Shown here one piece after another: positions 5,380 through 61,917 of a stretch of DNA of 64,000 bases (position 1 is the stretch's first letter; every line of letters starts with the position of its first letter). Position numbers and translations under genes: made by a program. The DNA is taken from the NCBI GenBank assembly GCA_964502925.1, contig CAZCYH010000020.1, positions 442 to 64,441 of the forward strand, given 5' to 3'. This stretch comes from an uncultured Leptospira sp. GTDB taxonomy: Bacteria; Spirochaetota; UBA4802; JAGODF01. The notes beneath the pieces are model-generated. The model ran no database searches, was not told where the DNA came from, and worked only from the letters and a program-made list of their open reading frames with translations.

Positions 5380-5865
5380 TTAACGGGCGAATTCAGCAGC
5401 CAACAGCGCTGGATCGCTTGGCAATCCCCACCAGATGTGAAACACCGTCGCTTCTTCTATACATTTATCATAAATTGCACAGTTTTTGTAGGGATAAGAA
5501 TCCACTTCTTCGTCATATTCGCCCTTTTCGATGCGCTCTAACAAGCCCGGTAAATATGCAAGCACCGCAATGGCAATCACATGCGAAATCGACCTTCTAT
5601 AAAATCTCCGCATATCATTAAAATAATCATACTCCCTTTCCAGCATTTTCACCTTCACGCGGAATTTTGGTATTGGCATGCCATCTGCGTCGAATCGCTT
5701 CTGGTATTCAATTCTACCATGTTCTCTCTCGTGTTTTGAATGATGCCGCATTGCGTGGCGCATCACCGCGATGATGAGGTCAATCATCGTCCAGCCCGTG
5801 CGCTTCTCGGCGTCTTTAAGGAGCAATAACACCTCTGTTGTCATCATGTAAGTTGTTTTTATCAT
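5380..5865 (-). CDS. 161-aa multi-copy family protein, copy 1 (function unknown; possibly a Leptospira-type paralogous DUF)
   Basis: MIKTTYMMTTEVLLLLKDAEKRTGWTMIDL...HIWWGLPSDPALLAAEFAR. Near-identical paralogs lie at 48124..48609 and 61432..61917, and a truncated copy at 25856..26089. Confidence 0.75.
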   Translation of the reverse strand: MIKTTYMMTTEVLLLLKDAEKRTGWTMIDLIIAVMRHAMRHHSKHEREHGRIEYQKRFDADGMPIPKFRVKVKMLEREYDYFNDMRRFYRRSISHVIAIAVLAYLPGLLERIEKGEYDEEVDSYPYKNCAIYDKCIEEATVFHIWWGLPSDPALLAAEFAR

Positions 5866-10690: not shown

Positions 10691-10852
10691 TGAATTTGCA
10701 ATAACGAGACGGGCGGCTATGGTAGTTGCCGGTCTCTGGTGGGCATGAAATTAAGTAAAGCCGAATGTGGCGGAGAGGTATCCGACGCGGGCGGTTTTGA
10801 TTAAGCCCATAATGAATTTCAATCACCAATAAATTTTACAGGAGGAATCCAG

Positions 10853-24320: not shown

Positions 24321-25730
24321 TTGAATATTGCCATGCGTATAATAACACTACTCAAATGTATCTTTTTTTCTTTTATCGTATCATCCCTTTTTTCCTGCGC
24401 CAGGGATGAAATCCACAGCCAGGTACAAAATTCAAAGCGCTTCAATACTGATTCCATTGAAAGCAGACTCGTGCATCCGGGCTGTGAAGCAATCATTCGC
24501 GGAAAAAATTACAATATCATATTGTATTTCTTTGAATCCTTTCCGGCGAAATACATTGACTTCGAGATACACGGCCGCAAGGTAGCGCCACACTGGCGGC
24601 GACTTATGCAGCATGCCTTTGTGGCGCGCAATCACTACGCGAATTTTCCCCTCACCGCCAATGCGCTCTTTTCAGTGTTCGCTTCCGCGTATGACCCAAT
24701 TTTAAAGGAGCCGTTTGAGCCGGGAAAGATTAAAAACTCTGAGACGCTCACGCTCGTGGTGAAGAATTATCCCGATATTCCTCTCACCATGCTGCCGGAG
24801 ATGTTAAAAGACAAAGGATACCGCACGTATTATTTTCACACCTGGACGCTTGGCTATGTGGGCACGCGACGATTTTTGCAGAAGCGGAAATTCGATGTGG
24901 TGCTCGATATGCATCAGCTCAAGCTCGCCTCGTCGTACAATCAAAAACTCGGCTATGGAATTGACGACCGTGCGCTCATTGAGCCGAGTGTGCGCGCACT
25001 CAAATCTGATCCCGGCAAACCATTTTTCGCGGTCTATTGCCCATTGAGTCCGCATTTTCCGTATCCCATTCCAGAAGAAAAATTCGATATTGCCGGGCCT
25101 CCTCAAAAGTATGCAACATTTGAAGAGGATTGCAAACGCAAATACATCAATTCGCTGCATTATTCAGATGCGGTGCTCGGCATGCTCATTGATCGCCTGG
25201 AGGCGGAGAGTCTGCTCGAAAACACGCTTATATTTATATTCGCCGATCACGGGCAGGCCTTTCTTGAACACAAGGGGAATTTTCGGCACAGGCTGGGAAT
25301 TTATGAGGAGAATGTGCATGTTCCGTTTATTATTTACAATAAACAAGTATTTAACGCACCGGTTGAATTTGACGGCATCACAAGTCACATCGATATAACG
25401 CCCACCATTCTTGATGTACTGGGGCTTCCTCCGCTGGCGCATCAGGAAGGGATATCGATGCTTTCTCGGCGAAGGGAGCAGATGGCCATTTTTCAGACGT
25501 ATGGACCTGACCACATGATGGGTGTGCGCGATACCAAGTGGAAATATCTGTATAATTATACGAAAAATACAGCGGAACTGTACGATGTCATTGCCGACTC
25601 GGGGGAGCAGCAAAATGTAGCGGAGAAAATGTCGGAGATTGTTCGACGATATCACAAAGTGCTGGAAAAATCCTACCAGCATCGAATCGACTTTTATAAA
25701 GCTCTCATGAGAAAAGATGGAATGCTGTAG
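24321..25730 (+). CDS. sulfatase/alkaline-phosphatase-superfamily lipoprotein (LtaS/MdoB-like or sulfatase)
   Basis: Lipobox SLFSCA; FIFADHGQAF..HVPFIIYN block typical of the sulfatase fold. No clear C/S-x-P-x-R formylglycine motif found. Confidence 0.65.
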   Translation: MNIAMRIITLLKCIFFSFIVSSLFSCARDEIHSQVQNSKRFNTDSIESRLVHPGCEAIIRGKNYNIILYFFESFPAKYIDFEIHGRKVAPHWRRLMQHAFVARNHYANFPLTANALFSVFASAYDPILKEPFEPGKIKNSETLTLVVKNYPDIPLTMLPEMLKDKGYRTYYFHTWTLGYVGTRRFLQKRKFDVVLDMHQLKLASSYNQKLGYGIDDRALIEPSVRALKSDPGKPFFAVYCPLSPHFPYPIPEEKFDIAGPPQKYATFEEDCKRKYINSLHYSDAVLGMLIDRLEAESLLENTLIFIFADHGQAFLEHKGNFRHRLGIYEENVHVPFIIYNKQVFNAPVEFDGITSHIDITPTILDVLGLPPLAHQEGISMLSRRREQMAIFQTYGPDHMMGVRDTKWKYLYNYTKNTAELYDVIADSGEQQNVAEKMSEIVRRYHKVLEKSYQHRIDFYKALMRKDGML

Positions 25731-25855: not shown

Positions 25856-26089
25856 TTAACGAGCGAATTCAGCTGCGAAGAGTGAGGGGTCGCTGGGTAA
25901 TCCCCACCAGATGTGAAACACGGTTGCTTCTTCTATACATTTATTGTAAATTGCATAGCTTTTGCAGGCATTAGAATCCACTTCCTCGTCATAGGCACCG
26001 CTTTCAATGCGCTCCACCAGTCCCGGCAAATAGGTCAGCACCGCAATCGCGATCACATGCGAAATCGACCTTCTAAAAAACCGTCGCAT
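25856..26089 (-). pseudogene. truncated copy (C-terminal 77 aa) of the 161-aa multi-copy family
   Basis: MRRFFRRSISHVIAIAVLTYLPGLVERIESGAYDEEVD...WWGLPSDPSLFAAEFAR aligns to residues ~85-161 of the full copies. The N-terminal half and the family promoter are absent. Confidence 0.7.
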
Positions 26090-26209
26090 ATCATTAAAAA
26101 AATCATATAAAATGAAAAAAAATTTCTATCACCTCTTGACGATTGGACGGTTTGTATGTTTATTTATAATATATACCTATGGTCTATATTATAAATCGAG
26201 GAGGCAGGC

Positions 26210-29200
26210 ATGCAGACCACGATAATTCAACCAGCCAGAGATAGTGGCAAAAGGACGCTACTACCCCATAAAAAGAATATACTTCGCCATGGCTTGAAAA
26301 TCATCTCAGTGCAAAGAACCTGTGTGCACGACGGGCCTGGCATTCGCACCACCGTTTTTTTTCAGGGGTGCAATCTCGCATGCATCTGGTGTCAGAATCC
26401 CGAAGCGCGGCCGTTTGGAGATGTGCCGGGGCGAGAGTATCGAGATGTGCAGGAAGTGCTCGATATCATTGAAAGGGATGCGGAGTATCTTCGTGCTACC
26501 GGCGGCGGTGTGACGCTTTCCGGTGGCGAGCCTTTGATGCAGCATCCCGAAGCGCTTTTAGCATTTTTACAGGCATTGAAGAAAAGGAACATTTCTATTT
26601 CCGTTGAAACGACGCTCCATGCGCCGTGGCGGAATATCGAAAAAGTTGTGAAATATGTGGATCTTTTCCTGGTCGATTTGAAGGTGGTGGGTGATGATGA
26701 AAAGCACAGGCGCATTACCGGAGCAGATACCTCCCGTATTAAGGCTAACATAAAAAAGCTTCTTTCCATAGGTGGCAAAGTGAAATTTCGAATGGTCATC
26801 GTTCCCGGGTACAATAATTCGGATGATGATATTCGCCGGGCAGCGGAGTACGTACAATCCCTAAGCTTTTCTTCAATTGAACTATTGAAATACCACAATC
26901 TGTATGAAGGCAAGGCTGCAAGGATGAACGTTGCGGTAGAACATCTGCACATTGCGCCGCAGGAGAGCATGGAGGCGCTCAAAGATGCAATATCGAAATT
27001 TCAATCATATGGAATCGATGCGGAATGCTATGATCTTGATTATCCCCGAAAGAAAGCTGCGTTCACCTCGCGCGTGTACGATATTCAGAACGATATCCGG
27101 TCAAGCGAACATCATCTCTGCTTCGAAGTTGCGAAGCTCAAAACCGAATTCTACAGAAAAAACGGCTTTACAAAACCAAATCCAATTCATCGCGCCGAGC
27201 GACTGAAATATGTGCTTTCAAATAAAAAAATTATCATTTATCCCGGAGAGCTTCTGGTGGGCAATTTCACTTCCAAGCGCAAAGGCGGGCAGGTGTGGGA
27301 GGAGCATTATGGTGTGCTTTTTGCTTCAATCCTGCATCAGATACATCGACAGAAACCAGTTGCCTTCAAATGCTCTTTTCGCGATAAGCTTTCGTTCTAT
27401 TTCAATATTTTCCCTTTCTGGCTTAGAAAGGGGATCCTCGCTCGTGTGAATAAAACTCTGCGCGATTTCATCCTTTTAGTAGCGCGCGCATCGGAAATGA
27501 ATGCCGGATTTAATAATAACATGGCCTCGATTGCTCATTTTATTGTGAATTACGAGCGCGTTCTGCGCAACGGCACGCGCGGCCTCATTTCTGAAATTGA
27601 ATCGGCAAAAAAAGCTAATCCTGAGAAAAAGGATTTTTACGATGGCATGATTATCGCGCTGGAAGCGCTCGAAATATTCGCCGTGCGGTATGCGCATGAG
27701 CTTCGCGTGCTTTCGGAAAACGAAAGCGATCCGCTGCGAAAGGAAGAGCTTCGCCGGATGGCGGAAATCTGCGAGCGCGTGCCGAAATATCCCGCGCGAA
27801 CATTCCATGAAGCGCTTCAGAGCATGCTTTTTTTGCATATTGCGCTATGCATCGAATCGTATGAAAACGCCATCTCTCCCGGAAGGCTCGATCAGATTCT
27901 CTATCCGTATTATAAAAAAGACATGGAGGATGGCATCATCGACTACGAAAAGGCGAAGGAATTGCTGGCGCTTTTTATTATTAAAATGGATGAGGTGATT
28001 CTTGTAAACGACGGAGATACCTATCTTCGCATCGGAAGGCTTTTCGAAACGATGTCCACTGACCAGACCGTGACCATGGGGGGCCTTACTCCCGATGGGA
28101 AGGATGCGACGAACGATATCACCTACATGCTGCTTGATATCTGCGAGCTTCAGCCCTATGCCATAAACATGGCGGCGCGCATACATCCAAAAAGCCCAAA
28201 AGCGTACCTGCGAAGAATTGCCGAGGTGTACTTAAACGGTGCGCCCATGCCCGCGCTCTATAACGATTCGATATATATTGACACCTTGCTTTCGCATTAT
28301 GACACCACCATTGAAAATGCGCGCAATTACGCGATTGTGGGCTGCGTCGAGCCGAATGCCTCCGACGATCATTTCGGGAATACCGATTGCGCCAATGTCA
28401 ATGTGACGCTTCCGCTTCTTCAGGCCATCAAAGGTCAGGAAGACGATTTGTGGAATCTCACATTTCGCGAGCAGATTGATAAAATTATAGCGAAATTCAT
28501 TGAATATAATTTCCGCAGAGAGGGGAAAATTTCAAGATTCATACGCACCAAATATGCTTCCGCGCGTCACAGAAGAAAAATTAAAAAAGCATCTCCAACC
28601 TACAATCCTCCTGCATCAATGGATGAGCTTTTGATTAGATACCAAAAAAGGCTGAATGCGCTTGCGCAATCCATTCTGGCGGATCATCAGAAAATCGAAA
28701 AAGTCATACGCACGCATTTCACCACACCGCTTGCTTCCACGCTCTTTGCTAACTGCATTGCAACCGGCATGGATGTCAACGAAGGCGGGGCGCGTTTTAA
28801 TTCCAGCGGCATTCAGGGAGTGGGTATCACCGACGCTGGCGATTCTCTCCACGCGATCGATGAGGTGGTGTTTAAGAAAAAGCTCTATACGATGCGGGAA
28901 GTTATTGATGCGATCGACAATAACTTTGAAGGCGAAAAGAATGCTGAAATACGCAAGGCGCTTTTAGCGGTGCCGAAATTCGGGCAGGATAATTCTCCCG
29001 AAGCGGTTGCGTGGATAAATACAGCGCTTGAAATGTATGTGAATGCGCTCAAGTCCGTGCCGAATGTGCCGCGCAACGGCATTTATTCTGCCGGCTATTA
29101 TGCGCTGAACGTGAGCGATGTGTACGGCTCGAAGACGCCTGCGCTTCCATCGGGAAGGCTCGCCGGCGTGCCGCTTGCGAACAGCATCACTCCGCATTAT

Positions 29201-29545
29201 GGTATGGAGATGACGGATCTCACCTCGGCGCTGAATTCTGTGGCTGGCATCGATTTCAGGTGCTTCGCGCCCAACGGAACCACGGTGACCTTCACGGTTG
29301 ACTCGGCCCTCTTTCAGGGGCCCGATGGCGTGGACAATCTTGCCGGCATCATCGCGTCGTATTTCAAAAAAGGCGGCATGCAGTTTCAGCCAAACGTGCT
29401 CAACAGGGAAATCCTCATCGATGCGTATCATCAACCCGAGAAGTATCCCTACCTCCTGGTGCGCGTGGCCGGATACTGCGCGTATTTCAATGACCTGTCC
29501 GATGATTTAAAGAAAATCATCATTAACAGGACGTGCTACTCGTAA
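26210..29545 (+). CDS. fusion protein: glycyl-radical-enzyme activase (radical SAM) + glycyl radical enzyme (Cys-x-Glu dehydratase/lyase class)
   Basis: Residues ~30-280 match a PFL-AE-type activase (HDGPGIRTTVFFQGCNLACIWCQNPE, GGGVTLSGGEPL). Residues ~310-1111 match a GRE (ERLKYVL..IYPGELLVGN N-terminus; IVGCVEP catalytic Cys-x-Glu; C-terminal glycyl motif LLVRVAGYCAYF). SD GAGGAGG lies 7 nt upstream. Confidence 0.85.
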   Translation: MQTTIIQPARDSGKRTLLPHKKNILRHGLKIISVQRTCVHDGPGIRTTVFFQGCNLACIWCQNPEARPFGDVPGREYRDVQEVLDIIERDAEYLRATGGGVTLSGGEPLMQHPEALLAFLQALKKRNISISVETTLHAPWRNIEKVVKYVDLFLVDLKVVGDDEKHRRITGADTSRIKANIKKLLSIGGKVKFRMVIVPGYNNSDDDIRRAAEYVQSLSFSSIELLKYHNLYEGKAARMNVAVEHLHIAPQESMEALKDAISKFQSYGIDAECYDLDYPRKKAAFTSRVYDIQNDIRSSEHHLCFEVAKLKTEFYRKNGFTKPNPIHRAERLKYVLSNKKIIIYPGELLVGNFTSKRKGGQVWEEHYGVLFASILHQIHRQKPVAFKCSFRDKLSFYFNIFPFWLRKGILARVNKTLRDFILLVARASEMNAGFNNNMASIAHFIVNYERVLRNGTRGLISEIESAKKANPEKKDFYDGMIIALEALEIFAVRYAHELRVLSENESDPLRKEELRRMAEICERVPKYPARTFHEALQSMLFLHIALCIESYENAISPGRLDQILYPYYKKDMEDGIIDYEKAKELLALFIIKMDEVILVNDGDTYLRIGRLFETMSTDQTVTMGGLTPDGKDATNDITYMLLDICELQPYAINMAARIHPKSPKAYLRRIAEVYLNGAPMPALYNDSIYIDTLLSHYDTTIENARNYAIVGCVEPNASDDHFGNTDCANVNVTLPLLQAIKGQEDDLWNLTFREQIDKIIAKFIEYNFRREGKISRFIRTKYASARHRRKIKKASPTYNPPASMDELLIRYQKRLNALAQSILADHQKIEKVIRTHFTTPLASTLFANCIATGMDVNEGGARFNSSGIQGVGITDAGDSLHAIDEVVFKKKLYTMREVIDAIDNNFEGEKNAEIRKALLAVPKFGQDNSPEAVAWINTALEMYVNALKSVPNVPRNGIYSAGYYALNVSDVYGSKTPALPSGRLAGVPLANSITPHYGMEMTDLTSALNSVAGIDFRCFAPNGTTVTFTVDSALFQGPDGVDNLAGIIASYFKKGGMQFQPNVLNREILIDAYHQPEKYPYLLVRVAGYCAYFNDLSDDLKKIIINRTCYS

Positions 29546-29554
29546 ACATGATTA

Positions 29555-29584
29555 CCCGCGCGCGATTGTCGCGCGCGGGTTTTG
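29555..29584 (+). terminator. rho-independent terminator after the GRE fusion gene
   Basis: CCCGCGCGCG-ATTGT-CGCGCGCGGG followed by TTTT. Confidence 0.7.
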
Positions 29585-29590
29585 CTGGTT

Positions 29591-30139
29591 TCATTTTTCT
29601 AAATTTGGCAGAGGCGCGAACACAAGCGAGGCGGAATTCATGCAGTATCTTTTACCGGTTGGAGGAGGGCCGTCATCAAATACATGTCCTAAATGTGCAT
29701 CGCAGACGGCACAGAGAACTTCTGTACGGATCATCATAAAACTATAGTCTTCTTCGTACCGCACATTGTTTTTATGAACGGGTTCTATGAAACTCGGCCA
29801 GCCTGTGCCGGAATCGAATTTCGCTCTTGAAATAAAAAGATCATTCCCGCAGCAGGCGCAGCGGAAAACGCCCGTACGCTTCTCGAAATTCAGCAGCCCG
29901 CAAAAAGGCCTTTCGGTGCCCTTTCGCCGCGCAACCGCGAAAGTCTCGGGAGATAAAATTTCTTTCCATTCTTCATCGCTCTTAAAAACTCTTTCGACCT
30001 CAATCATGGCGTTTTTCTCAATGCTGAATACCTGTATGGTGAGAGGACGCGCTTTATCTTTTTGGGGTATGTTCAAGTCTGAGCACCTGGATGTAAAGGA
30101 AATAATGATGCATAATTGAATAACAACGAGAAATTTCAT
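29591..30139 (-). CDS. msrB: peptide-methionine (R)-S-oxide reductase MsrB with N-terminal signal-like extension
   Basis: GWPSF, two CxxC pairs (CACCGN..CAVCDAHLGH), and RYCMNSASL. Start uncertain: M at 30139 gives a signal-like N-terminus; M at 30007 gives a cytoplasmic form. Confidence 0.8.
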   Translation of the reverse strand: MKFLVVIQLCIIISFTSRCSDLNIPQKDKARPLTIQVFSIEKNAMIEVERVFKSDEEWKEILSPETFAVARRKGTERPFCGLLNFEKRTGVFRCACCGNDLFISRAKFDSGTGWPSFIEPVHKNNVRYEEDYSFMMIRTEVLCAVCDAHLGHVFDDGPPPTGKRYCMNSASLVFAPLPNLEK

Positions 30140-30366
30140 AATGAATAATATTCTCGCGATTGACCATAAATTTTGCAATCAACGTTTAATTAGAATTTAG
30201 CACAAAAAAGAAGAAAATCAAAAACGAGAATATGGAATCGCGAAAATTAAGTGTTTATGATTGTACATTTTTTTAATGCCGATTGGACGAGGGCGGAACT
30301 AAGTAATCCTTCAAAATATAGGAGGAACCTCTGAAAACCCAATTCCAAATTAAAATGAAAAAAAAA

Positions 30367-48123: not shown

Positions 48124-48609
48124 TTAACGGACGAACTCAGCGGCTAATAGCGCTGGGTCGCTGGGCAACCCCCACCAGATGTGAAAAACAGTCGCTTCTT
48201 CTATACATTTATCGTAAATTGCACAGCTTTTGTAGGGATAAGAATCCACTTCCTCGTCGTACGCACCGCTTTCAATGCGCTCCACGAGTGCTGGCAAATA
48301 CTCCATCACCGCGATCGCAATCACATGCGAAATCGACCTTCTAAAAAACCTCCGCATATCGTTAAAATAATCATATTCTCTTTCGAGGATTTTAATTTTC
48401 ACGCGGAATTTTTTAATTGGCATTCCATCTTTATCAAACCGGTTCTGGTATGCAATTCTTCCGTGCTCCCTTTCGTACTTTGCGTGATGCCGCATTGCAT
48501 AACGCATTACTGCTATTATTAAATCAATCATCGTCCATCCCGTACGCTTTTCGGCGTCTTTGAGTAGCAATAACACCTCCTGGGTCATCATGTAGGTTGT
48601 TTTGATCAT
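48124..48609 (-). CDS. 161-aa multi-copy family protein, copy 3
   Basis: MIKTTYMMTQEVLLLLKDAEKRTGWTMIDL... with the conserved upstream promoter TTGAAA-N17-TATTGT. Trimmed from ORF 48124..48711. Confidence 0.75.
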   Translation of the reverse strand: MIKTTYMMTQEVLLLLKDAEKRTGWTMIDLIIAVMRYAMRHHAKYEREHGRIAYQNRFDKDGMPIKKFRVKIKILEREYDYFNDMRRFFRRSISHVIAIAVMEYLPALVERIESGAYDEEVDSYPYKSCAIYDKCIEEATVFHIWWGLPSDPALLAAEFVR

Positions 48610-61431: not shown

Positions 61432-61917
61432 TTAACGGGCAAATTCTGCGGCTAACAGCGCCGGATCGCTCGGTAATCCCCACCAGATGTGAAACACCGT
61501 CGCTTCTTCTATACATTTATCGTAAATTGCACAGCTTTTGTAGGGATAAGAATCCACTTCCTCGTCATACTCACCACTTTCAATGCGCTCTACCAATTCA
61601 GGGAGATATGCCAGCACCGCAATCGCAATTACATGCGAAATCGACCGCCTGAAAAACCTCCGCATATCATTGAAATAATCGTATTCCCGTTGATGAAATT
61701 TCACTTTCACCCGAACTTTTGGTATCGGCATGCCCTCTGCGTCGAAGCGCTTCTGGTATGCAATTCTTCCATGCTCCCTTTCATATTTTGCGTGATGCCG
61801 CATTGCATAGCGCATGACCGCGACGACAAGATCAATCATTGTCCATCCGGTGCGCTTCTCTGCGTCTTTGAGCAGCAGCAATACTTCGTGCGTCATCATG
61901 TACGTGGTTTTTATCAT
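61432..61917 (-). CDS. 161-aa multi-copy family protein, copy 4
   Basis: MIKTTYMMTHEVLLLLKDAEKRTGWTMIDL...AEFAR. About 90% nucleotide identity to copies 1 and 3, and the same upstream promoter motif. Confidence 0.75.
   Translation of the reverse strand: MIKTTYMMTHEVLLLLKDAEKRTGWTMIDLVVAVMRYAMRHHAKYEREHGRIAYQKRFDAEGMPIPKVRVKVKFHQREYDYFNDMRRFFRRSISHVIAIAVLAYLPELVERIESGEYDEEVDSYPYKSCAIYDKCIEEATVFHIWWGLPSDPALLAAEFAR

Follow-up and report, generated by a model that had tools for sequence, protein, structure and literature searches.

A radical-SAM activase and a PFL-like glycyl radical enzyme joined in one polypeptide: a fusion family conserved across phyla

The fusion gene and its neighbors

The 64,000-nt stretch of DNA analyzed here (the window) contains, on the + strand, one open reading frame of 1111 amino acids with zero internal stops (ORF listing of the window), in which a radical-SAM activase (AE) precedes an oxygen-sensitive glycyl radical enzyme (GRE). 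The preliminary description had read this as a single-polypeptide AE-GRE fusion, and the reading held: there is one ORF with AE and GRE Pfam domains, and it recurs in other species. The HMM search it proposed for domain boundaries matched Fer4_12 (residues 41-169, 3.7e-14), Radical_SAM (residues 49-208, 1.4e-21), PFL-like (PF02901; residues 287-746 and a second stretch, 1.8e-142), and Gly_radical (PF01228; residues 990-1094, 1.2e-21), and the motifs it quoted were all found (GCNLACIWCQN at residues 53-63, GGGVTLSGGEPL at 98-109, ERLKYVL...YPGELLVGN at 330-352, IVGCVEP at 709-715, and RVAGYCAYF at 1085-1093). No second AE or GRE was found in the window. The features are as follows.

24321-25730, + strand: alkaline-phosphatase/sulfatase-superfamily protein, neighbor of the fusion gene
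25859-26125, - strand: truncated member, with only the C-terminal 77-89 aa, of a multi-copy family of 161-aa ORFs; neighbor of the fusion gene, in divergent orientation
26198-26204, + strand: Shine-Dalgarno sequence GAGGAGG, 5 nt before the ATG of the fusion gene, read from the sequence
26210-29545, + strand: AE-GRE fusion gene, 1111 codons plus stop, a single ORF with four Pfam domains
26210-26293, + strand: non-conserved N-terminal leader, residues 1-28 (mean column conservation 0.2; pLDDT <50)
26294-27034, + strand: radical-SAM AE domain, residues ~29-275, without ferredoxin-like insert (placed by TIGR02494, the PFL-AE alignment, and relatives' AE ends)
26330-26347, + strand: DGPGIR motif, residues 41-46 (D41, G42, P43, G44, and R46 invariant in 45 sequences)
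26369-26392, + strand: CX3CX2C [4Fe-4S]/SAM cluster motif, C54/C58/C61 (invariant in 46/46 sequences)
26522-26533, + strand: GG(E/D)P SAM-binding motif, residues 105-108 (G105, G106, and P108 invariant; 107 is E or D)
27035-27064, + strand: short junction LDYPRKKAAF, residues 276-285 (boundaries from unfused AE tails and GRE heads)
27065-29542, + strand: PFL-like GRE domain, residues 286-1111 (placed by PF02901, PF01228, solved relatives, and Foldseek)
27536-27538, + strand: His443, equivalent to GD His164 (proposed general acid) by alignment to 1r8w; invariant in the clade
28340-28354, + strand: Cys loop G711-C712-V-E714-P with CXE motif (aligns to GD C433/E435; invariant in 46/46)
28442-28594, + strand: clade-specific basic insert of ~45-50 residues (~745-795), a predicted helical hairpin in the GRE
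29462-29488, + strand: glycyl radical loop R1085-V-A-G1088-Y-C1090-A-Y-F, inside the PF01228 match
29554-29580, no strand: GC-rich hairpin, 12-bp stem with 10 G-C pairs, between the convergent fusion gene and msrB
29591-30178, - strand: SelR/MsrB, convergent neighbor of the fusion gene

The hairpin at 29554-29580 is probably a bidirectional terminator common to the fusion gene and msrB. The sulfatase-family and MsrB neighbors named in the preliminary description lie at 24321-25730 (+) and 29591-30178 (-). The sulfatase-like gene is common only to the closest relatives, L006 and L007, and is missing across the rest of the clade; the MsrB comparison covered L006 and 95%-identical contigs. Because both neighbors are confined to the closest relatives, they look incidental and would offer no functional clue. 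The truncated 161-aa family copy upstream is real, with 83 to 87% identity to full copies at 5380-5865, 48127-48609, and 61432-61917 (tblastn, blastp), but the recombination or acquisition junction it had been taken to suggest is not supported. In L006 (95% identical), the fusion gene occupies the same syntenic position beside an intact 161-aa gene, 384 bp of which the window is without. Judged from this alignment, what had looked like an acquisition site is one copy of a multi-copy gene that has lost 384 bp.

Independent assemblies reproduce the fused frame: one contig from ENA and one from Logan carry it at 95% identity. Because 181 codons differ from L006 by synonymous changes only and 61 by non-synonymous ones, the fusion gene is under purifying selection.

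Activase and glycyl radical enzyme domains

The AE domain passed the curated GRE-activase model TIGR02494 (PFLE_PFLC; 214.1 bits, cut-off 174.35), with a match that splits around profile positions ~60-104, and fell below the cut-off of the PflA model TIGR02493 (157.8 bits, cut-off 231.75). Residues 36-263 align to residues 11-238 of PFL-AE 3c8f (E 5.5e-28), and the AE C terminus of unfused relatives aligns to about residue 275 of the fusion. We take DGPGIR, from what is established on PFL-AE/peptide structures, to be the GRE-AE-specific glycine-loop-binding motif. Across 45 to 46 fused sequences, the AE and GRE catalytic motifs are invariant save for E/D at position 107; the CX3CX2C and glycyl-loop motifs of the preliminary description thus survive alignment.

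The AE was also correctly said to be without a ferredoxin-like insert: there are just 5 Cys among residues 1-285, and CX3CX2C and GGEP are spaced 51 residues apart, whereas 11 of the 12 unfused relatives measurable for this spacing have 102-106, with 8-18 Cys in their AEs. The twelfth, L074, has a spacing of 70 and a shortened insert without Cys clusters. The ferredoxin-like domain absent here is found in the vast majority of non-PFL, non-RNR activases, so it is typical of GRE activases rather than strictly defining, and PFL-AE and RNR-AE function without it (PMC13450708). The fused AE and PflA (3C8F/3CB8) both consist of the radical-SAM core only, with similar CX3CX2C-to-GGE spacing, a DGxGxR peptide-binding motif, and alignment over the whole domain; unlike PflA, the fused AE is covalently joined to its putative substrate protein. 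Because it scores closer to TIGR02494, whose match is broken in two by the missing insert, than to TIGR02493, the comparison points to secondary loss of the insert rather than descent from PflA.

The GRE domain has the barrel and the C-terminal glycine-radical domain of the PFL-like branch (PF02901 and PF01228). Its best solved relatives are glycerol dehydratase (GD, 1r8w), Archaeoglobus fulgidus PFL2 (2f3o), and propanediol dehydratase (PD, 5i2a); Foldseek gave target-normalised TM values of 0.86-0.89 against solved GREs, and identity to any solved GRE is ~23-31%. The loop reads G-C-V-E-P, which agrees with the earlier placement in the Cys-x-Glu class and not with the Cys-Cys of PFL. C712, the predicted catalytic Cys, aligns with GD C433 and PD C438, and the invariant C712-V-E714 aligns to the CXE of GD, PD, HypD, and PFL2, as would be expected of a CXE-class enzyme. 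GD residues H164, C433, E435, D447, and Y640 align with His443, Cys712, Glu714, Asp726, and Tyr964, and the segment after the Cys loop, ASDDHFGNTDCAN, including D726 (GD D447), is invariant or nearly so. Near the C terminus, R1085-V-A-G1088-Y1089 matches the glycyl loop pattern RVxG[FWY]; R1085, A1087, G1088, Y1089, C1090, and F1093 are invariant. AF2 models have pLDDT <50 exactly at the Gly and Cys loops, whether or not the AE domain is present.

Many homologues align to the fusion only from residue 29 onward, past the leader. Junction columns 276-285 contain no gaps and show moderate conservation, A283 and F285 being nearly invariant; in the AF2 model, coil at 273-286 gives way to a helix spanning 287-298. 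The helical insert in the GRE, which AF2 models as helices at 752-767 and 773-797, is less conserved than any other part of the chain except the leader; it is present in all fused-clade members shown and missing from every unfused relative and from two further fusions, P0122 and P0125.

Recurrence, relatives, and origin

The preliminary description had treated the fusion as the oddity of one locus, which was not borne out; it belongs to a conserved, widespread family already in public databases. The search for other AE-GRE fusions that it had proposed returned at least 120 protein clusters, and 45 complete loci, with the same fusion at 55-95% identity, and the best 120 of 607 matches all carry the four domains, with lengths of 1093-1139 aa. 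Databases name the family 'pyruvate formate lyase family protein' or 'radical SAM protein', and JGI names it 'pyruvate-formate lyase/pyruvate-formate lyase-activating enzyme'. The hosts are several dozen anaerobic bacteria (Spirochaetota/Leptospirales, Smithella and other Desulfobacterota, Myxococcales, and Clostridia) and, among the Asgard archaea, two Promethearchaeota MAGs. Pairwise identity among fused sequences is 45-96% for the AE and 53-96% for the GRE; because the two divergences are correlated (r = 0.72), the halves are inherited as one unit. On this sequence evidence, the AE-GRE fusion forms a single clade conserved across phyla.

Gene contexts of the fused loci are heterogeneous and without a coherent pathway. 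No conserved metabolic operon or partner gene was found across the fused loci examined, and the sole recurrent neighbor is a FadR/GntR regulator, in Desulfobacterota. A single-gene module needing no partner gene would fit these stand-alone contexts and the patchy spread across phyla.

Relatives at ≤36% identity are all two ORFs, with the AE separate from the GRE. In several of these pairs the AE comes first and the ends either abut or share from a few up to a few tens of bases, so that one frame-restoring change would fuse them. Most of the unfused relatives' AEs checked keep the ferredoxin-like eight-Cys insert, as do the two further AE-GRE fusions: P0122, a singleton cluster from a metagenome, and the Anaeramoeba flamelloides protein P0125, whose Cys and Gly loops are divergent. 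These two fusions and the unfused pairs L059, L060, and L062 are 34-40% identical to the fused clade over both halves and have the same AE-then-GRE order, the CIWCQNPE cluster motif, and a ...GYxAYFNDL glycyl loop. They differ in keeping the eight-Cys insert (spacing 103), in having no 45-residue GRE insert, and in their active-site signature (ESLDNSV / MFNGQ / GCVEPVSQGK); the three pairs also differ in being two ORFs. By this comparison, the fused clade has lost the AE ferredoxin-like insert and gained a clade-specific helical insert of ~45 residues. The fusion would have arisen once, from an AE-then-GRE gene pair with overlapping ends, and both the loss and the gain would have accompanied the event.

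We found no paper that describes or characterizes this AE-GRE fusion, and the words 'fused' and 'fusion' never occur in a comprehensive GRE review of June 2026. The earlier statement that such a fusion is uncharacterized stands to that extent, but a bioinformatic precedent exists in eukaryotic NrdDG (PMC3019208). This class III RNR, with GRE and activase in one ORF, is known only from sequence and confined to a few eukaryotes, which is explained by operon transfer into eukaryotes (PMC3019208, PMC4390871). NrdDG and the fused family both have a GRE and a radical-SAM activase in a single ORF; NrdDG, however, belongs to the RNR-like GRE branch, apparently in the opposite order (NrdD then NrdG, going by name only), whereas the fused family is PFL-like, prokaryotic, AE-first, and widespread. 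An NrdDG-type class III RNR was rejected as an identification of the fusion, since the catalytic domain is PFL-like and the scores of the NrdG models lie under their cut-offs (70 versus 131 and 44 versus 126).

Proposed chemistry and activation

We consider it likely that the fusion is a self-contained GRE with a working AE and CXE-type chemistry that arose once from an overlapping AE-GRE pair; it would most likely be a self-activating 1,2-eliminase or isomerase. The AE would bind a [4Fe-4S] cluster via C54/C58/C61 and SAM via GGEP, would be reduced by cellular flavodoxin or ferredoxin, and would cleave SAM to a 5'-deoxyadenosyl radical. This radical would abstract hydrogen from Gly1088 in the RVAGYCAYF loop, which DGPGIR would hold once the C-terminal glycyl radical domain has flipped out. 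We infer that the fused AE activates its own GRE; this could take place within one chain or, in a homodimer, between the two partner chains. The Gly1088 radical would then make a thiyl radical on Cys712, which would abstract a substrate hydrogen, while Glu714 would deprotonate the substrate hydroxyl and His443 would probably protonate the leaving group, as in 1,2-eliminases and isomerases. The substrate is probably small, polar, and hydroxylated.

It is improbable that the enzyme has an ordinary characterized function, PFL or B12-independent glycerol/1,2-propanediol dehydratase, and is merely fused. Database names such as 'formate C-acetyltransferase' favor PFL, but the Cys-Cys pair is missing and equivalog scores are far under the cut-offs. 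PFL was rejected on the G-C-V-E-P loop and these scores (TIGR01255, 127.5 versus 994.2; PRK09983, 367.9 versus 1109); the PFL2/GD subfamily model TIGR01774 (PFL2-3) gave 502.7, also below its cut-off (678.2). For a dehydratase speak the best solved relatives (GD 1r8w, PD 5i2a/9rco), the kept equivalents of H164, C433, E435, D447, and Y640, and an aldehyde:ferredoxin oxidoreductase gene upstream in a few Spirochaetota fused loci. Against it, no microcompartment, aldehyde dehydrogenase, or diol-pathway genes are conserved near the fused loci, the identity to solved GREs is low, and substrate-binding residues are replaced. B12-independent GD/PD was rejected because N553/A554 stand where GD has H281/S282, and D618 where it has Y339 (F in PD), with no variation at these positions within the clade; the GD substrate-binding residues that are kept are H443, D726, and Y964 (His164, Asp447, and Tyr640 equivalents). 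Among the characterized CXE members considered (GD, PD, HypD, HpfG/HpsG, CutC, IslA, PflD/YbiW, and HplG), all NCBIfam equivalogs scored far below their cut-offs (HypD 392/1100, HpsG 374/1000, CutC 321/1050).

GD (C. butyricum, 1R8W/1R9D) and PD (Roseburia, 5I2A/5I2G; 9RCO) are the best sequence and fold matches, at ~28% identity, and share with the fusion the PFL-like ten-stranded barrel, the CXE Cys loop (C712/E714 equivalent to C433/E435), and the RVAGY glycyl loop. Each has a separate activase, whereas that of the fusion is attached, N-terminal, and without a ferredoxin-like domain. The fusion further differs in its ~45-residue helical insert after the Cys-loop strand, in Cys1090 replacing Ser in the Gly loop, and in having no diol-pathway or microcompartment context. 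Archaeoglobus fulgidus PFL2 (2F3O) is the second-best sequence match (31% identity), with a target-normalised TM of 0.89, the highest value along with that of PflD 8YJO. PFL2 and the fusion have a similar 'E-(S/N)-Y-E-(N/Q)-A-I-S' active-site strand, and both carry Q at the Q619 position; PFL2 is unfused, has no insert, and has CVE followed by a different loop. Because PFL2 function is still debated, no functional assignment transfers to the fusion GRE.

We also think it unlikely that the AE domain survives only as a remnant with a structural or regulatory role, or mainly serves another GRE, while a free activase acts in trans. At least one MAG holds both the fused gene L052 and the unfused pair L060, so cross-activation in trans is possible in some hosts; in the window, no other AE is present. 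The lost ferredoxin-like domain is reportedly needed for a lasting radical in HPAD, as stated in section 2.1 of PMC13450708, but PFL-AE and RNR-AE work without it (PMC13450708). DGPGIR, C54/C58/C61, and GG(E/D)P are invariant across deep divergence, unlike in a remnant, and the AE and GRE divergences correlate.

An artefact, in which a sequencing or assembly frameshift merged adjacent AE and GRE genes, is effectively refuted: the AE and GRE ends of the nearest unfused relatives overlap, such that one indel could merge them, and two clade members have frameshifts, but the frame is unbroken in at least 120 protein clusters and in 45 complete loci obtained by independent projects from different phyla, the junction columns are conserved without gaps, a separate GRE would have no start codon or RBS, and the two breaks (a 1-nt indel in the consensus junction sequence of L050, a nanopore-derived MAG, and one within the AE domain of L051) look like errors of those assemblies.

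Within the reading of a self-contained enzyme with a working AE, it is possible, though we hold it less likely than not, that the AE installs, and can repeatedly re-install, the radical in its own polypeptide (in cis, 1:1) and that the basic insert serves as a docking element or hinge replacing the ferredoxin-like domain. In published PFL data (PMC13450708, section 2.4), the radical is lost faster when AE and GRE stand at 1:1, so it is not evident that tethering them permanently at this ratio would be an advantage.

The fusion could ease the study of a poorly understood step, since a tethered AE-GRE without auxiliary ferredoxin clusters would supply a 1:1 complex ready for cryo-EM or crystallography. 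No step in the GRE superfamily is less well understood than activation. Structurally it has been seen only in the complex of PFL-AE with a 7-mer peptide, the way in which the glycyl radical domain moves out of the barrel and back in is "not well understood," half-site loading is open, and insoluble or unstable activases are the main bottleneck for new GREs (2026 review, PMC13450708). The fused enzyme would permit a clean genetic test of cis versus trans activation and could be a template for engineering self-activating GREs, and the clade suggests that an eliminase-type lineage can do without the ferredoxin-like domain. The clade is widespread as well, occurring in methanogenic and syntrophic communities and in Asgard archaea, the last a group for which we know of no PFL-like GRE function. 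If activation does occur in cis, the family would provide an AE:GRE complex that is stable by nature and, with it, the first system in which the flip of the glycyl radical domain into the activase becomes tractable; it would also represent a radical enzyme encoded by one gene and able to spread horizontally, present in syntrophs, spirochaetes, Clostridia, and Asgard archaea.

Domain architecture of the fusion gene

The activase (AE) and the glycyl radical enzyme (GRE) are encoded in one uninterrupted reading frame, which is listed here with the other features of the window that bear on it.

Features of the window (position, strand, description)
5380-5865, 48127-48609 and 61432-61917, all minus: full copies of a 161-aa ORF family, 83-92% amino acid identity
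24321-25730, plus: generic alkaline-phosphatase/sulfatase-superfamily protein; best NCBIfam match lipoteichoic acid synthase, 85 bits against a cut-off of 970
25859-26125, minus: truncated copy of the 161-aa ORF family, upstream of the fusion gene
5 nt 5' of the ATG of the fusion gene, plus: ribosome-binding site GAGGAGG, read from the sequence
26210-29545, plus: AE-GRE fusion gene, single ORF of 1111 codons
29554-29580: GC-rich hairpin after the fusion stop codon, common to the convergent msrB

Pfam places four domains on the chain: residues 41-208 match Fer4_12 and Radical_SAM, the PFL-like match starts at residue 287, and Gly_radical spans 990-1094. The single-polypeptide fusion proposed in the preliminary description is borne out, and every motif quoted there was found in its place. 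The N-terminal part matches the NCBIfam GRE-activase family TIGR02494 (214 bits; cut-off, 174), and the model nearest to the C-terminal part, the PFL2/glycerol-dehydratase subfamily, falls below its cut-off (503 against 678). The protein belongs to both the PFL-like GRE superfamily and the GRE-activase family; its assignment as pyruvate formate-lyase (PFL) or as any characterised eliminase or isomerase was rejected, since every NCBIfam equivalog for a characterised GRE scored far under threshold. The best solved relatives of the GRE part are glycerol dehydratase (GD; 1R8W), Archaeoglobus fulgidus PFL2 (2F3O), 1,2-propanediol dehydratase (5I2A/9RCO), and HypD, and that of the AE part is PFL-AE (3C8F). 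No second AE or GRE was seen within the window, and an Rfam search of it returned no riboswitch or other RNA.

Across 45-46 aligned fusions, D41-G-P-G-x-R46, C54/C58/C61, and G105-G106-x-P108 are invariant in the AE half, as are H443, G711-C712-V-E714-P, D726, Y963-Y964, and R1085-x-A-G1088-Y-C1090 in the GRE half. The active-site signature of the fused clade (fusions lacking the ferredoxin-like insert, the window gene included) reads ESYENAIS / STDQT / GCVEPNASDDHFGNTDCAN / AGYYALNV. Compared with GD, the equivalents of His164, Cys433, Glu435, Asp447, and Tyr640 are kept, whereas GD His281/Ser282 are changed to Asn553/Ala554 and GD Tyr339 to Asp618. The pocket is polar and acidic, which is a weak hint to the substrate.

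Recurrence and hosts

Of the 607 matches in a search of 5.8 billion proteins, the best 120 are all 1093-1139 aa long, carry the four domains, and share 63-95% identity with the query. Scanning a single genome for each GTDB species yielded 80 loci. On ORF check, every locus of at least 55% identity (L006-L058 and L063) has the fusion in one frame, save L050 and L051; 45 of these loci are complete and the others are interrupted by contig ends. The fusion is therefore neither an artefact nor unique, and the uniqueness claimed for the locus was overstated. The L050 break, a 1-nt indel (~10755-10760), falls exactly at the AE/GRE junction and disrupts the consensus junction sequence in a nanopore-derived MAG; the L051 frameshift (~5668-5770) lies within the AE domain. 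Both are probably sequencing or assembly errors, and less likely natural pseudogenes or genes split again. Genome-scan matches of 27-36% identity across both halves were considered as distant fusions and rejected, as all proved to be two genes on ORF check. Among sequenced plasmids, no member of the fused clade was found: every match had less than 60% identity, and each of the ten listed is annotated as a pair of genes.

The hosts comprise Spirochaetota/Leptospirales, Smithella, Syntrophaceae, Desulfomonilia, Desulfosudaceae, Myxococcales, Clostridia/Christensenella, and two Promethearchaeota MAGs. On the fusion-bearing contigs from Promethearchaeota (L033 5705-7261; L040 11717-16015), there are also genes for a small GTPase of the Arf/Roc type and an LRR-TIR protein of 1432 aa, which fits a genuine Asgard origin as against bin contamination. 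The closest relatives of the window fusion are from an "uncultured bacterium" MAG (95% identity) and a MAG labelled Leptospira biflexa (82%), and its sequence was recovered at 95% identity in one ENA contig and one Logan contig. It differs from the 95% relative by synonymous changes only in 181 codons and by non-synonymous changes in 61.

In a neighbor-joining tree of the clade, sequences are grouped mostly by taxon, and the window fusion is placed with Desulfomonilia-like sequences. Because one Leptospirales sequence falls within Clostridia, and sequences from Desulfobacterota and Spirochaetota are intermixed, the tree indicates some horizontal transfer. Pairwise identities of the AE and GRE halves within the clade correlate (r = 0.72).

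Probable origin of the fusion and absence of the ferredoxin-like domain

When 1.84 billion cluster representatives were searched exhaustively, the fused clade corresponded to one 50% cluster (P0033) plus fragments. Its nearest relatives outside the clade, at 34-37% identity, are separate genes, and in several of the nearest pairs (L059, L060, and L062) the AE gene precedes the GRE gene with ends that abut or share anywhere from a few bases to a few tens; a single frame-restoring change would be enough to fuse such a pair. One Leptospirales MAG (CAYRGX01) holds both a fused gene (L052, 61% identity to the query) and the unfused pair L060 (35%), so fused and unfused systems coexist, and cross-talk between their activases is conceivable.

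Two further AE-GRE fusions were found, both with the Fer4 insert. The first, P0122, is a metagenomic, prokaryotic-looking protein of 1095 aa with 40% identity and an intact ferredoxin insert; it may be a true fusion or a gene pair merged by a frameshift, and it forms a singleton cluster known from three short contigs. The second (P0125/P0270; KAJ3428281.1), from the anaerobic eukaryote Anaeramoeba flamelloides, is a 1136-aa fusion that keeps the insert; with its divergent Cys loop (GSCEL) and Gly loop (VPLSGN), it may be a pseudoenzyme or have a variant radical site.

The absence of the ferredoxin-like domain from the fused AE, also noted in the preliminary description, is confirmed: the AE domain has 5 Cys in total and 51 residues between CX3CX2C and GGEP, against 8-18 Cys and 102-106 residues in 11 of the 12 unfused AEs measured. 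Since the AE of the fusion is closer by HMM score to the ferredoxin-containing activase family than to PflA, this absence points to secondary loss. The twelfth unfused AE (L074 619-1470, from an Ignavibacteriaceae MAG) has a spacing of 70 and a shortened insert without Cys clusters, which, judged by sequence, is an independent partial loss outside the fused clade. A June 2026 superfamily review (PMC13450708) gives the ferredoxin domain as missing only from PFL-AE and RNR-AE.

As the natural AE C terminus aligns near residue 275 and the first GRE helix begins at about 286, the tether is only ~10 residues long; its columns are without gaps and moderately conserved. The GRE half also carries a basic, clade-specific insert of ~45 residues (~745-795), predicted to form a helical hairpin and missing from all unfused relatives and the other fusions compared.

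Genomic context, activation, and significance

Among 47 fusion loci whose neighbors were clustered, only one neighbor recurs: 15 Desulfobacterota loci have a GntR regulator of the FadR subfamily immediately upstream in the same orientation. Its nearest models (LldR, NanR, PdhR, and FadR) all score under their cut-offs. This regulator family usually senses carboxylates, which is a weak hint to the substrate. In one Spirochaetota lineage (L003, L005, L041, and L044), a gene for a 797-aa aldehyde:ferredoxin oxidoreductase lies 0.1-1.5 kb upstream on the same strand, which may point to an aldehyde product or be mere lineage synteny. The remaining flanks are housekeeping or heterogeneous, and same-strand neighbors in Clostridia and others encode MFS_2 plus GH95, GDPD, beta-helix, SHMT, and MatE proteins. 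Neighborhood was thus rejected as a substrate clue, the 47 loci giving FadR/GntR and lineage-specific synteny and no pathway.

In the window, the fusion gene is flanked by the sulfatase/alkaline-phosphatase-superfamily gene and msrB; MsrB adjacency was compared in L006 (the 95% relative) and in the 95%-identical contigs. The sulfatase-like neighbor is common only to L006 and L007, and its description as a sulfatase holds for superfamily membership but not for a specific function, given its best NCBIfam score. The 161-aa family upstream has no match in Pfam or NCBIfam. Its DNA repeats are 490-640 bp long at 81-86%, and the 64 kb contain three complete copies besides the truncated one. The truncation had been taken for a recombination or acquisition junction. 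However, the copy at this position in L006 is complete. Relative to L006, the window lacks 384 bp (L006 9504-9887, at window ~26095-26107), made up of the gene's 5' half and 150 bp of divergent intergenic region; this is therefore a deletion, and the 115 bp nearest to the fusion gene on its upstream side are retained. Overall, the preliminary interpretation mostly stands, for the fusion and the absent insert, and fails for locus uniqueness and the upstream junction.

In an AF2 full-chain model, pLDDT is below 50 at the Cys loop, Gly loop, and inner strands. Because a GRE-only control shows the same segments, the low confidence is attributed to the shallow 45-sequence MSA rather than to the AE context, and reading it as an "open" state was rejected. 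Foldseek against the PDB returned ordinary GREs and no AE-GRE complex. Judged by their motifs, the AE domain appears to have all the features needed for SAM cleavage and glycyl-loop binding, and the GRE domain all those needed for glycyl radical storage and Cys-x-Glu-type chemistry; with both sets present, we infer that self-activation would be the simplest reading, either in cis or between the two chains of a dimer.

Our full-text searches of open literature turned up no account of a PFL-like AE-GRE fusion, and the 2026 review never mentions one, although the family can readily be seen in public databases, where it has generic names. Eukaryotic class III RNR NrdDG proteins (PMC3019208, PMC4390871) are the only sequence-level precedent for a GRE-activase fusion. 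According to that review (PMC13450708), structural knowledge of activation comes solely from PFL-AE with a peptide, and the main obstacle is the solubility of activases. The value of the fusion lies not in a new principle but in a naturally occurring AE-GRE complex of 1:1 stoichiometry and in a widespread clade distinct from the characterised GREs.
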